Notes under the pieces: model-generated
What the model was told of the DNA's origin: nothing
Databases searched by the model: none
The model's input: only the letters and a program-made list of their open reading frames with translations
Part shown: positions 1 to 61,993 of the stretch, in pieces
How positions within the stretch are numbered: the first letter of the stretch is position 1
Layout: each line of letters begins with the position of its first letter
From: Eledone cirrhosa
Taxonomy: Eukaryota
Reading direction: 5' to 3'
Assembly (NCBI GenBank): GCA_964016885.1
Contig: OZ024747.1
Location: 45,818,001 to 45,882,000 of the forward strand
Length of the DNA: 64,000 nt
Made by a program: the position numbers and the translations under genes

Positions 1-371
1 AGTTATAAATTATAACTCATAAATGTGAAATTTAAAGATGATAGCATATATATATATATATATATATTAAATACATTAACAATATCGCTTATATTTAATA
101 CATTAAGAATATCGCTTAAAGCTTTCTCTGTTAATGTATTAAATATATATATATATATATATATATATATATATATATATATATATATATATATTTAATA
201 CATTAACAGCTTTAAGCGATATTCTGACCAACTCCATCTCACTCAACAAACATTAGGATATACCTAAGTATTCTCCCAATTTAGTGTTTGGGGTGCTAAC
301 TATATAGTATTTCGTGGAAAGTTGGTTGTATTATTTTATATGAGACATAATTAAATAAATCTTTCTTTCTT

Positions 372-494
372 TCCATACGATCGTTTCGTTATAAGATTTC
401 TACAATTTGGGATAAATAATGTCCAAGTTATGTAGAAACTTGTATATAATCGATAGAAATACACACAAGCGGGCCCTTATAACTCATCAGTGGA
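372..494 (-). ncRNA. Type I hammerhead ribozyme motif with palindromic stem III
   Basis: Minus strand reads TCCA-CTGATGA-GTTATAAG...(80 nt)...CTTATAAC-GAAA-CGATCG-TA-TGGA. Stem I is TCCA/TGGA, stem II is 8 bp, stem III is the self-complementary ACGATCGT, and the cleavage triplet is GUA. It lies in an island (~195-690) flanked by (TA)n. Confidence 0.85.
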
Positions 495-924
495 TGACCA
501 TGCAATATCGATATAAAAAATTACATCGATATTAATAATTAGTGATGGTCTCCGTCAGTGCTAGAAGGACAGCTAAATTTGAAAAGCCAGTAGTCCTTCA
601 AAAATAAAATCCACACTGTCCCCAAAAGGGAAAGGAGAGGTAATCGTAAAATATAAAGTAATATACACGCTGGTCATTGAAGCCTGTTATATATATATAT
701 ATATGCTATCAAATGTGTTGATTCTGCTATGAAAAAAAAGACAGTTAGATATGTGTGTGTGTGTATTTATTAATATATATACATATATGCATATATATGT
801 GCGCTTATATATGCACGAAAGAGGTTAACAGCCCCTTAATATACTTTCGTAAATCTTGGCCATTGGAGATATGATAAAAAAAAAAGTATCAGCCTTTATT
901 TAACAAATTTAACGGTGAACACAC

Positions 925-1405
925 TTTTATTTCATTGTGTGCATGTCGTATCGAATGAATATAAACACATACACGTACACTAGGCCCGAACTCCCACTGT
1001 CATCACCTCCATCTCTCTCGCCATCCCCATCTCTCACTATTATGAGCAAATGGGGTCCCACACGCTGGCCGCTCCACGACTCTGTTGGACAGAATGGAGA
1101 AGGCGTTTCCCCGGGGATGGTGAAGGCCATTCCATCTCGCGAGGCTCACACCTGCGGATCGCCAGCTCAGTGCATATGGTGGTAGCCCTAGGGTGAAGGA
1201 TATCAGAAGTCTCCACTGCTTGGGGCTCGACTGCAAACCTGTCGGAGAGCGACCGATACTTGGAGACTTTACCCTTCTCAGTCCGAAGTGCAGCAGAGCC
1301 TTAGTTAATCACCGACTGCACCAGGTTGCCGCAAGAGAATGTGTCACTGCTTCTGGCGTCCCAGACGAGGGGTTGACCACCACGGAACGGGAAGATGGTC
1401 GTGCC
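925..1405 (-). mobile_element. 3' fragment of CRE-like (restriction-like endonuclease) non-LTR retrotransposon, degenerate
   Basis: Minus strand translates GTTIFPFRGGQPLVWDARSSDTF...KYRSLSDRFAVEPQAVETS...RGNAFSIL, with a stop and frameshifts. The 3' UTR is shared with the copies at 23.6, 29.7 and 40.9 kb. Confidence 0.75.
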
Positions 1406-3754
1406 AATTTAACAACTTATAGTAAATGTTATTGTTTCCAATAAGTCTTCTTATTTTTGATACAACCGTACAACATTTTTTTCTGTTAGTATCTTAGTAT
1501 CATGTCTCAACCCCTATTTCTATCTAAATTTAAGATATATGCTCCCCTTTAAGTACCGTCACGGTAGACTGACTTTCTGAAAAACGACCGATATATTAAA
1601 ACCTTTAGATCTCTGTGACAGTGTAGCCAGAACTATAATTAAGGAGTGGCATTCTCTAAAAAGGATTATATCACCACTTGACTGCCCCTACCTCCTCCCC
1701 AACATTCACTAGCAAAAAGTTAACATCAGGTGCCATTCCAGGACTGCCTCATACTTATATAACATTTTTGCAGGTGGTCCCCGAATCGAATTTTCTATTT
1801 TCTTTTCCCTATCTTCCATTATATGTTTGGGTTCAAAGTAATCCTGTTAAGTAATTCTGTGGATGACGCCTGATGAGATCGTCCTGTCTTGTATCATAAT
1901 TGGATGATGGAGCTGGGTCATCGAAATACACATAATTAAAATTCTAAAGCAGTTCGGACTTCTGTTGTTATTTGAATGAATGCTTTACTCCATTCCTGCA
2001 CCAGCCACTGGATACCACATCTACGATAGATTGCATAACGTTGAGTGTTTTACTTAATTTGTTGCACCACAGAAACACAAGTTCTACCCATTGGTAATCA
2101 AACTAACTTAAATGTATGTTTATGTTTTTAGCATCAATTCTCTCATTTAGCGATCATAGAGCAACAGAATCCTTATATGTCGATCTCTTTTAATATGTGT
2201 GTGTATATATTTATACACACACACACATATATATATATTTATGTTTATATATGTCTATATTAACTCTACCACTAATTTTGTGTTTTTTTTGCCAATAATT
2301 TTTATAATAAACACCATTAACTGTCCTGTTTGAAGACCCCTAGTTATGTTCATTTCTCTCTAAACTCATCTAGATATTGACAAGTGTTTGACAATTACTA
2401 ATTACACAAGAATGACATTCAGCTTACCACATTTCTCTTTCTTTTCTTGATATCAGCATCTACAATTCTCCCTGGAAAACAGTTAAAAAACAAAATATAT
2501 AGAACCAGTATTGAAAGTAGATAATTAAATGAGTCTCAAAAACTCTTTGCTTTTCTTAAGACTTTATTTTTGAAACAATGACAAAAGAAGTTCTCAGGGC
2601 ATCTGTGTTCATGAGTATGCCATTTGCAAAGTGATGAAAGATCTGTGATGTCTTGTGAAGAAGAGTTCCACAACAAAGGGAGAGAAGGGACGAGCCTATA
2701 CAAGTCGTATTCCTCTAATAATGATGATCTTAGTTGCCCATTTATGATGCTCATTTATTCCCGTGGTAGAGTCATCAGACATGCTTTCCAGCGATGGTGA
2801 TTGCAGAATTTAAACTGCAGCTTTGCCTGCTTCACTTCCTTATGCTTTTGAATTTAGATCATCACTATACCGATTGACTTACCTCATATAGTGAATTTAG
2901 ACTGTTTGAATGCCTGGACCCATTACTTCTCATAGAGATTTATAGGTGCCTTAGTTACATACAGTATGACATAGTTATTTAAACTTGGCAGAGACTCCCC
3001 CATCCCTTCATATCTGAGCACAGCCAATTTTTTCCAGAGAAGGAGAGAAAGAGGAAGTGAGGAAGAGATATAGAGAAATAATCGACCCCTGTACTCGAAT
3101 GCTGCTTTTTTCATTTACTACACGCAGAAAAATAAAATGAAAGGTAATTTGACATAAATGGGATTTGAACTCAGAATCAAACAGCTGGAACGAATAACCC
3201 AAAGCATTATATTAACCATTCTAGCGACTCAGCCAATTTGTGTCCTAGAATTTAGGTTAGATCCTCACTATACTAATTCCATCACCCACCTTATATAGTG
3301 GAATTTAAACTCCACTATACCAATTCCATCACTTTATATTGTAGAATTTAGACTCCACTCTACCAACTTGCCTGATGTACCCAGTAGTATTTATAACTCC
3401 ACTTTACTCACAACATTGCTTTATATCCTGTCATTTAGTATACCAATCTACCAACTTCCTCACCCTCTTATAATGTGTCAGTATAACAAAAATAATCAAT
3501 ATTTTGAAAGCAAAATTTATCTGAATTTTAAATGACTTAAATAATCAATGACTCATTCAATGAACCAATTAATTAGTTAATTACATTACACCGATAAAAA
3601 TAAATAATTCCACACCACCACAAAATTGACAGCAGTTTACCCATATTGCAATCATCATAATTGTCATCTTCATCATCACTATCATCATTATCATTGTCAC
3701 CATCAAATCCACCATCATTACCATGTCTATTCTCAGCACCATTCAAAATCCACT

Positions 3755-3934
3755 TGGTAGTATCGTAGAGGGTCGGACGCCATGCTTTGCAGCACAGTTA
3801 CGTCCCTTTACGGACTGAGTTCAAATCCCGCCGAGGTTAACTTTGCCTTTCATCCTTATGGGGTCGATAAAATAAAGTACCAGTAACACACTGGGATAAT
3901 TGCTGGCCTTGTGCCAAAAGTAGAAACAATTATT
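3755..3934 (+). mobile_element. tRNA-derived SINE, family A
   Basis: B-box-like GAGTTCAAATCCC, central GCCTTTCATCCTTA(C/T)GGGGTCGATAAAATAAAGTACCAGT and tail GTAGAAACAATTATT; more than 20 copies in the window. Confidence 0.85.
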
Positions 3935-60681: not shown

Positions 60682-61186
60682 ATTTAGGAGCAGTTTAGGT
60701 ATGATACATTTTATTACTAATTATATCTAAATGTTTCTTCTCTCTTCATAATGTATTTTTAACTCTGATATTGGTTCAGTCTAGTTCAACTGAATTGGTC
60801 TGTCCCAGTCATTCATTGAGCAACATCGGTGAAGTTGGCACTCTTAACTCACAGTTGGGTGCGGATGCATTCATGTATATATGTGTGTGTCCGCATGTAT
60901 CTGTGTGTTTCTAAATATATTGTTAATAACTCCCTCTGGTCGAGCAATCTTTGAAGTGTGGGGACAGCTGGAAAGCTTCCATTACTCATACTTCTCGCCT
61001 TCTTCACCACCTCTTCTACGGCCTCGATATAAATACCCCCTCCGCCTCCGTGGTATTTTCTTCGGGGTTATAAGAGGCTTAGCTCTGTTTCTCGACCGTT
61101 ATATCGCGTGACTATCTCCCCCTCCGCCTTTTGGGATTCTTTCTCACGTCGTGTAGACGCGTTCTTGGGACTAGTAAAATGAGGTA

Positions 61187-61276
61187 TCCTCTTGATAAGT
61201 CGGCAGACCTCGCAAGGACTCTATATCTTTATGATATATTGTTTTTGTTTATGCCACGAAACTACGTAGTCGAGGA
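61187..61276 (+). ncRNA. Type I hammerhead ribozyme motif, U3-A8 core variant (copy 2)
   Basis: Identical to 60592-60681, 595 nt downstream. Confidence 0.8.
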
Positions 61277-61579
61277 ATTTAGGAGCAGTTTAGGTATGAT
61301 ACATTTTATTACTAATTATATCTAAATGTTTCTTCTCTCTTCATAATGTATTTTTAACTCTGATATTGGTTCAGTCTAGTTCAACTGAATTGGTCTGTCC
61401 CAGTCATTCATTGAGCAACATCGGTGAAGTTGGCACTCTTAACTCACAGTTGGGTGCGGATGCATTCATGTATATATGTGTGTGTCCGCATGTATCTGTG
61501 TGTTTCTAAATATATTGTTATATATAAATATATATATATATATGTAGAAGTTCTATTTAAATTGTTGGGATACAATAAG

Positions 61580-61732
61580 CAAATATTTTTATAACTGATA
61601 TAAAGCACTCAACAAATTATTGGAGTAAAAATACGATATATTAACAAATGGAAACTATATTTATAAAACTATATTTATTTCATTATACATATTTCAAGGA
61701 CACCAAGTTAAATTATGGTGTGCTTTCATCAT
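61580..61732 (-). repeat. Diverged copy of the 38.7-38.9 kb HHR-like family
   Basis: Minus strand ..TGATGA-AAGCACACCA...TGGTGTCCTT-GAAA-TATG-TA-TAATGAAATAAAT... is colinear with 38747-38895; truncated by (TA)n at the CUGA box. Confidence 0.65.
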
Positions 61733-61755
61733 ATATATATATATATATATATAAT

Positions 61756-61993
61756 GGAAAACGAAAAATCAGTGATGCATCGGAACTCAATTTATTGTGT
61801 GTTACAATTGTTTCCCTGGCGAACAGCTCAAGGTGCGATCCGTGTGTGGATCTACCTGACTCTAGACTCTAGACCCTGCGAGTCTAGAGTCAGGTAGATC
61901 CACACACAGATCGCACCTCGAGCTGTTCGCCGGGGAAACAATTGTAACACACAATAAATTGAGTTCCAATGCATCACTGATTTTTCGTTTTCC
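61756..61993. repeat. 114-bp inverted repeat (10-nt spacer, 4 mismatches)
   Basis: 61756-61869 is the reverse complement of 61880-61993. It is homologous to 60195-60300 and contains only the GAAA-CAATTG-TA-ACAC half of that HHR-like motif. Confidence 0.9.

Follow-up and report, generated by a model that had tools for sequence, protein, structure and literature searches.

Hammerhead-bearing ends of Penelope-like elements and non-coding units at TA microsatellites in Eledone cirrhosa, with a proposed mechanism of insertion

Why would repeat families with unrelated flanks each carry a hammerhead ribozyme motif and each lie between TA microsatellites? The question is raised by a 64,000-nt stretch of the Eledone cirrhosa genome (assembly GCA_964016885.1, contig OZ024747.1, positions 45,818,001 to 45,882,000 of the forward strand; hereafter the window, from whose first base its coordinates are counted), in which an earlier note, made from the sequence alone, had claimed seven minimal type I hammerhead layouts. 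All seven were found in place by strict and relaxed descriptor scans. We consider it likely that they belong to the pseudo-long terminal repeats (pLTRs) of seven unrelated families, A to G, which target TA microsatellites; three of these would be ends of coding Penelope-like elements (PLEs) and three non-coding units, and a mechanism for their insertion is proposed below.

Seven families between TA tracts

The elements that carry the hammerheads are as follows, 'long' (tail) and 'short' being the two alternative 3' ends known from six of the families.

195..689 (-): family A, 5'-truncated copy of a 763-nt non-coding tandem unit, with (TA)n at 143-194 and 688-703
372-494 (-): family A hammerhead, core at 490 (484-490), stem III ACGATCGT at 377-384, H17 at 376, predicted cleavage site after 376
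37094..37439 (+): family B, 5'-truncated copy of a 483-nt non-coding tandem unit with the short 3' end; hammerhead 37281-37364 (motif 37286-37359), stem III ACCGATCGGT
38486..38918 (both strands): family C fold-back of two pLTR arms, left arm with the short end, right arm with the long (tail) end; hammerheads 38738-38803 (+) (motif 38746-38795) and, as its mirror, 38527-38592 (-) (motif 38535-38584), stem III ATATGTAT
59161..59547 (+): family D 3' untranslated region/pLTR, the short 3' end abutting (TA)n at 59544-59591; hammerhead 59361-59405 (motif 59366-59400), stem III AGAACT
59592..59980 (both strands): family E fold-back, left arm long, right arm short; hammerheads 59827-59865 (+) (motif 59832-59860) and, as its mirror, 59749-59787 (-) (motif 59754-59782), stem III AGTACT, U at position 17
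60196..60473 (-): family F, 5'-truncated copy with the short end; hammerhead 60236-60324 (motif 60240-60320), core CCGACGA (U4 to C), stem III ACAATTGT
60490..61520 (+): family G, partial tandem of a 595-nt non-coding unit with the long 3' end; hammerheads 60592-60681 and 61187-61276 (motifs 60597-60676 and 61192-61271), core TTGATAA (U3-A8), stem III ACTACGTAGT

Under the strict descriptor the window held six motifs, against a mean of 0.45 and a maximum of 2 in 100 block-wise dinucleotide shuffles; the six are five of the motifs claimed before and a probable chance match at 48595-48624. Families E, F and G escaped this descriptor and were found by the relaxed scan, which had no shuffle control and also listed two probable chance matches. 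The hammerhead core (N3-U4-G5-A6-N7-N8-A9 with positions 3 and 8 paired, G12-A13-A14, A15.1-U16.1 and H17) is present in A, B, C, D, E and G, F departing from it by the C at position 4. Stem I has 4-8 bp in all seven families; E has a weak stem II of 3 bp, and that of F and G is irregular. Self-complementarity of stem III, which the earlier note saw in most of the families, held for the five perfect palindromes and, with a G-U wobble, for C, but not for D, whose stem III is no palindrome (predicted homoduplex +1.4 kcal/mol).

The flanks are indeed unrelated, as the sole cross-family match in a blastn comparison of the seven reference units was 17 nt of low complexity (E 0.024). Each of the seven elements has a TA tract at both sides, and in any one family the 3' ends vary in position by a few bases at most and lead into (TA)n. 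After collapsing of arrays, and with room downstream, 51 of 62 motifs had at least five TA units within 300 nt downstream, compared with 22.9% of random positions; among the palindromic motifs the proportion was 42/45. For an abundant repeat resembling a short interspersed nuclear element (SINE), used as a control, TA tracts were found on one side in 23/127 copies and on the other in 26/127.

A scan of the window against Rfam returned 109 matches at E<=10, none to a hammerhead family, so that these motifs are invisible to standard annotation; microRNA-like Rfam matches were rejected as microsatellites and inverted repeats. A degenerate hammerhead-like motif, not listed in the earlier note, also lies at 1870-1931 (+), with CTGATGA, a 3-bp stem II, GAAA and an imperfect 8-nt stem III, lacking stem I and TA flanks; it is probably an old copy or a chance match.

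Abundance of the hammerheads and selection on their fold

A very large genomic complement of hammerheads, as the earlier note had expected, is borne out by counts at two scales. Over the whole genome, the exact C-like stem III pattern matched 80,656 times (193 in the reversed control), the exact 6-nt stem III pattern 103,023 times (1,261) and the exact G pattern 5,017 times (0); the three patterns are disjoint, and their summed excess over control is about 187,000 matches in 3.0 Gb, or 62 per Mb. They ignore stems I and II, and the first 100 listed of the C-like and the 6-nt pattern were, by eye, nearly all family members. A systematic sample of 99 10-kb stretches (990 kb) held 93 motifs, compared with 4.0 across 10 shuffles and with 5 after reversal of the sequence. 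It extrapolates to 269,000 motifs (bootstrap 145,000-436,000), or 182,000 with tandem arrays collapsed, two arrays alone giving 32 of the 93. The 415 motif matches from all loci formed 30 clusters, of which 14 have at least two distinct members and some singletons are due to chance. As an explanation of the motifs in general, chance matching in AT-rich repetitive DNA retains next to no probability: Rfam finds none of them and a loose long-loop pattern, which we dropped, was no commoner than its control (55,656 vs 62,035), but the excess of the other counts over shuffled and reversed sequence, together with compensatory changes in the stems, refutes it.

Here and below, comparisons with PMC4209133, PMC8557442, PMC7229834, PMC6962438, PMC13282606 and bioRxiv 10.64898/2026.07.22.740005 apply to the covered parts of these sources. 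The hammerheads resemble the minimal type I hammerheads that pLTRs of PLEs carry (PMC4209133; Cervera and de la Pena 2014) in type I topology and short stem I, and share with them an extra nucleotide after A9 (several families), a U3-A8 core variant and a palindromic stem III interpreted as dimeric. In both cases a genome harbours many divergent families, most copies are single and truncated, and there are opposite-strand pairs 100-700 bp apart. Several families here differ in that their stem III palindromes measure 8-12 nt and their stem II loops reach up to 96 nt, and the U4-to-C core of F has no counterpart in the covered part of that paper. The copy number, about 187,000 or more, compares with 2,000-9,000 in schistosome, coelacanth and Xenopus (PMC4209133). 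A coral carries >6,000 hammerheads in 16 families, and axolotl 126,247 (PMC7229834) in 28.21 Gb (bioRxiv 10.64898/2026.07.22.740005), that is, about 4.5 per Mb compared with about 62 per Mb here. The nearest report concerns the giant squid, with 235 Rfam hammerheads (PMC6962438); a repeat annotation of Octopus vulgaris lists active Penelope families, with no ribozyme analysis in the part covered (PMC13282606). No report of the present motifs was found in the literature searched, the supplements of PMC8557442 and PMC4209133, which may list related families, lying outside its scope.

The systematic sample contains more families with the U3-A8 core (e.g. L292, L299, L303, L270), their stem III being ACCGGT, AATATT or a 12-nt palindrome. 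A family with an odd-length stem III, ACCACTGGT, occurs in L231 and L238.

Do these motifs still bear the mark of selection? Covariation of the stems was seen in the C superfamily, where 98.2% of cells were paired and 112 double changes stood against 30 in shuffled data, all slid controls being lower; these counts lean on the way the 41 variants were picked, namely by a descriptor that requires stems, a point against them. Among 55 C copies found by their flanks only, core positions deviate in 2.8%, compared with 57% at N7 and 15% in the 5' flank, and the three variable stem II pairs were paired in 53/53 cases, against 85-90% if the positions were independent. For stem III, a palindrome-blind scan found 72 of 86 stems of at least 6 nt to be palindromic (0.1 in shuffles), and the central four letters were palindromic in 11 of 15 distinct even-length stems, against 7% by chance. 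The central adjacent pair, complementary in 41/41 C-superfamily variants, cannot close in a hairpin and thus points to a double hammerhead, a structure already published (PMC4209133). The predicted dimer fold beats two monomer minimum free energy folds in six of seven families; in D, which has no palindrome, it is not favoured (-20.8 vs -23.4 kcal/mol), and this counts against the dimer. Judged from sequence, the hammerhead appears to be kept by selection in the source elements, and it is predicted to form a double hammerhead between two units with stems I and III swapped. Such a structure would probably process tandem transcripts, with the palindrome constrained to self-complementarity and its sequence likely drifting freely between families.

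The earlier note had gone further and proposed that the palindromes act as family-specific dimerisation codes, only cognate ribozymes completing stem III. In favour of selected codes, some 20 flank clusters carry mostly different palindromes, those of A, B, F and G are long (8-10 nt), and homoduplexes are predicted to be far stronger than most cross-pairs. We nevertheless find such codes very improbable. Palindromes are shared at chance level (2 pairs observed vs 1.5-1.8 expected, on a hand-made family list), one superfamily switches among three or four of them (including ATATGTAT, ATATATAT and ATGCGCAT), the abundant family D has none, and stems III of A and B cross-pair at -9.2 kcal/mol. Besides, stem I, swapped in the same dimer, already separates the families (only B-G and two 3-bp cross pairings exceed 2 bp), and tandem units can pair in cis. 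Incompatibility of palindromes between families is, in our reading, a by-product of divergence.

Coding and non-coding families

The window had been taken for a sample of diverse TA-targeted PLEs, solo pLTR copies and non-autonomous units, and this description stands: TA tracts are enriched, A, B and G are tandem units, and C, D and E are, on sequence evidence, the ends of coding PLEs. For D, the coding part lies in the window itself.

57452..57634 (-): family D inverted 5' arm with the long (tail) end, without the hammerhead core
57611..59160 (+): family D coding remnant, frameshifted and 5'-truncated; C-terminal part of the reverse transcriptase (RT) 57611-58453, GIY-YIG endonuclease (EN) 58393-59160

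This remnant matched Pfam RVT_1 (E 2.7e-4) and GIY-YIG (E 4.6e-4), both below the Pfam cut-offs. The best named relative of the D protein, 64% identical, comes from Octopus vulgaris, and the RT/EN of the window was matched in 18 of 30 D loci. In four E loci (L128, L132, L148, L149) a separate GIY-YIG domain, above the Pfam cut-off and about 28% identical to that of D, lies 363-523 nt upstream of the hammerhead, and L142 holds a further piece. No RT of E was seen in the E loci examined; its endonuclease marks E as the 3' end of a second coding PLE. Family C is, to judge by its open reading frame (ORF), an autonomous PLE. Long C fold-backs contain this ORF and, among eight C-type loci picked for long open frames, two (L323, L327) are complete, with the order pLTR, 743-aa ORF, pLTR over about 4.2 kb, and three (L324-L326) a pLTR directly upstream of a frame of 738-746 aa. 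A search with the C-type RT gave 74,198 first-look candidates, a figure that is not a copy number. Hammerhead pLTRs thus occur on both sides of the ORF in C (L323, L327), and on the 3' side only in D and E.

Truncation at the 5' end, an inverted 5' copy and an optional 3' tail, the features of PLEs, are found in C, D and E. Canonical PLEs with a C-terminal endonuclease (Craig et al. 2021, PMC8557442) likewise have an RT followed by GIY-YIG, hammerhead pLTRs, an inverted 5'-truncated copy, partial tandems, a tail that is often at one end, and (TA)n targets. By eye, D and E carry the CX4CxxC linker that PMC8557442 names for Neptune/Nematis. Pieces of RT or GIY-YIG 30-60% identical to C, D or E mark further PLE lineages (L206:2075-3034, L126, L230, L288, L298).

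The units of A, B, F and G gave no match to a PLE protein, their longest stop-free frames being 63-99 aa. Hammerheads on the same strand are spaced by 763 nt in A (once), 482-485 nt in B (10 times) and 591/595 nt in G (20 times). Family F, about 500 nt long and bounded by microsatellites, has no ORF and no same-strand tandem among its anchored loci (26/30). First-look DNA searches gave 2064 candidates for A (the best 40 at 95-100%) and 956 for B (the best 40 at 99-100%). PLE protein matches upstream of A, B, F or G loci were rejected as separate insertions, since they lie on the opposite strand or past a TA tract.

In structure, A, B and G are non-LTR retrozymes, and they are likely moved by PLE-type elements. 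Animal non-LTR retrozymes (Cervera and de la Pena 2020, PMC7229834; Li, Clavereau and Pollet, bioRxiv 10.64898/2026.07.22.740005) have one type I hammerhead per non-coding tandem unit, as do A, B, G and two further long arrays, and a PLE origin has been proposed for them (PMC7229834). The units here carry TA junctions, a tail and fold-backs, none of which is reported in the retrozyme passages covered. The two further arrays come from L285 (G000:C7:37000001-37010000), with 311-nt units, stem III ACGCGT and a fold-back of 12+1 units, and from L308 (G000:C22:12000001-12010000), with 19 copies of a 468-nt unit with ACTAGT, separated by short TA tracts.

Paired 3' ends and twin priming

Six families possess two alternative 3' ends, 45-165 nt apart, the interval corresponding to the PLE tail. 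In PMC8557442 the tail measures 30-40 nt and is often present at one end only, a rule that can be measured here: of 96 fold-backs, among which a few segmental duplicates may be counted twice, 92 join a long to a short outer end, two are long+long, one is short+short and one is unclassed (p 3.6e-24 on 95). The pairing recurs in 11/12 fold-backs of the systematic sample, in 14/16 of D and in all four window fold-backs tested (C, D, E and F-related). L004, one of the long+long cases, contains a TA tract internally together with seven discordant subfamily sites, and is probably two insertions. The remaining arms and stubs of the window are these.

61754..62070 (both strands): F-related fold-back, both arms truncated in stem II, left end short, right end long; GAAA and stem III kept, CUGA core missing
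61548..61751 (-): older family C arm, truncated within the hammerhead
62126..62182 (+): short family C 3' stub
106..141 (+): 36-nt stub of the family A 3' end

A further TA-bounded family is present as a fold-back extended on one side (43229-43416) and as a related stub (37451-37513); these copies have a GAAA hairpin and no hammerhead core, and are similar by translation to sequences in L312 and L320.

The two arms of a fold-back mostly have subfamily variants in common, with 12 discordant sites vs 32 expected in D, 6 vs 46 in C, 0 vs 6.8 in B and 1 vs 5 in G. Both arms usually traverse the whole pLTR, and each can hold more than one unit; their 5' break points are different and overlapping, and either arm may be the longer one. 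Tail-only inverted arms, which would be expected if the second primer stopped at the first hybrid, are not the rule. The geometry of a target-primed start is seen directly in the sequence of both outer junctions, and the short ends coincide with small AT-rich patches in the template. At the other end, no pile-up of arm starts at the cleavage site was found among loci not fetched with the family concerned (C 2/54, D 1/43, E 1/5). Instead, among the C arms of loci that had not been fetched with C, 30/54 start 71-130 nt upstream of GAAA, and 26/41 E arms, in loci fetched with E, begin at -70 to -51. With 5' ends lying upstream of the hammerhead rather than at its cleavage site, the templates are taken to be uncleaved RNA, probably starting there.

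These observations suggest that each site is primed once, in two coupled events on RNA of a single source, perhaps a single molecule copied with strand displacement. We propose that the PLE endonuclease cuts both strands inside (TA)n. Two internal sites downstream of the hammerhead would then be open to priming, each target 3' end starting reverse transcription at one of them: one strand would use the short site, its partner the long one, on ribozyme-uncut RNA of one source copy, and joining of the two 5'-truncated complementary DNAs (cDNAs) would yield a fold-back; priming in the 5' pLTR may copy the leader only and leave a solo-pLTR stub. In its most specific form, which we put forward tentatively and rate as possible rather than probable, twin priming would be ordered on a single uncleaved RNA: the inner site is used first, the free tail takes the primer of the second strand, and strand displacement copies the pLTR twice. 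The long/short pairing, found in six unrelated families, coding and non-coding, would then be an in vivo footprint of PLE integration, and the ~190,000-270,000 motifs in at least 20 families would make up the densest natural ribozyme collection in the literature searched.

Alternatively, a single priming could be followed by snap-back or template switching of the cDNA, with the end difference arising from resolution by the nuclease and the tail being no second priming site. The concordance of arms fits the copying of one cDNA, and PMC8557442 ascribes the tail, often at one end only, to EN-mediated resolution. This alternative seems unlikely to us, because (i) the arms have different, overlapping 5' break points with either one longer, (ii) both ends use the same two fixed sites in each family, and (iii) the tail has been mapped to two RT start sites in vitro (PMC11167929). 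It is less likely still that the palindrome joins two RNAs in the manner of retroviral dimerisation and that a PLE protein dimer copies one RNA per target strand. The protein is predicted to be a dimer (PMC11167929), the palindromes are under constraint, and arms that run through the whole pLTR with more than one unit each need either two templates or strand displacement. Nevertheless, the arms mostly share subfamily variants, two free RNAs alone would not give strict long/short pairing, D forms its fold-backs without a palindrome, and mutants of the hammerhead core leave insertion in vitro unaffected (PMC11167929).

Several points weigh against the proposed mechanism of insertion and the family assignments given above. 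Family A has one clear 3' end and almost no inverted arms. The arms of E are no more alike than random (4 discordant sites vs 2.9 expected, on only two informative columns), and concordance elsewhere could stem from later gene conversion or a single dominant source copy. The 5' pile-up in C may in part reflect alignment ends against divergent subfamilies. The family loci are best matches and biased to young copies, and the search for an autonomous partner with the pLTR of A, B, F or G found none, which leaves the mobiliser of these families an inferred one.

The closest experimental system is PAc, a Poseidon element studied in vitro (Frangieh et al. 2024, PMC11167929). It uses two internal RT start sites bounding the tail, cuts and extends both strands, and acts on AT-rich targets with uncleaved RNA, as we infer for the families here. 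Its start sites are not homologous to the target and show no strand difference; the coupling of ends seen here, with short ends on AT-rich template stretches, finds no explanation there, which is a further point against our proposal. PLE hammerheads, palindromic stem III, dimers, many families in a single genome and TA targeting have all been published (PMC4209133, PMC8557442), and what is new here is the motif density and the long/short coupling of ends. The coupling was not found in the literature searched, a scope that excludes Lunse, Weinberg and Breaker (RNA Biol 14:1499) and supplements.

Other repeats accompany these elements in the window. The SINE-like repeat is very abundant (6018-6206, 32133-32322, 51957-52139 and many more; 127 copies in 990 kb), and we take it to resemble octopus SINEs. 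Repeats with an internal (GTCT)/(GTTT)-type microsatellite stand beside TA tracts at 37718-38041, 12256-12508 and 12869-13117, and presumably resemble Helentron-associated non-autonomous elements. At 49019-49394 and 63326-63905 we noticed 189 nt directly duplicated with 97% identity, and a repeat that contains an internal 33-nt tandem along with direct and inverted copies. A short frame at 10395-10763, for which Pfam gave no match, looks by eye like what we assume to be the C-terminus of a PIF1-type helicase of Helitrons.

How tandem and inverted PLE insertions are formed is described as an open question in PMC8557442, and the near-strict long/short pairing provides a sharp prediction for the in vitro system that already exists. 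That non-coding tandem units bear this signature too gives direct evidence, from the genome, for insertion of animal retrozyme-like repeats by the PLE machinery, as PMC7229834 proposes. In addition, at ~60-90 hammerhead motifs per Mb that Rfam does not see, the genome of E. cirrhosa offers a large natural library of core and stem variants (U3-A8, C4, U17 and palindromes of 4-12 nt).

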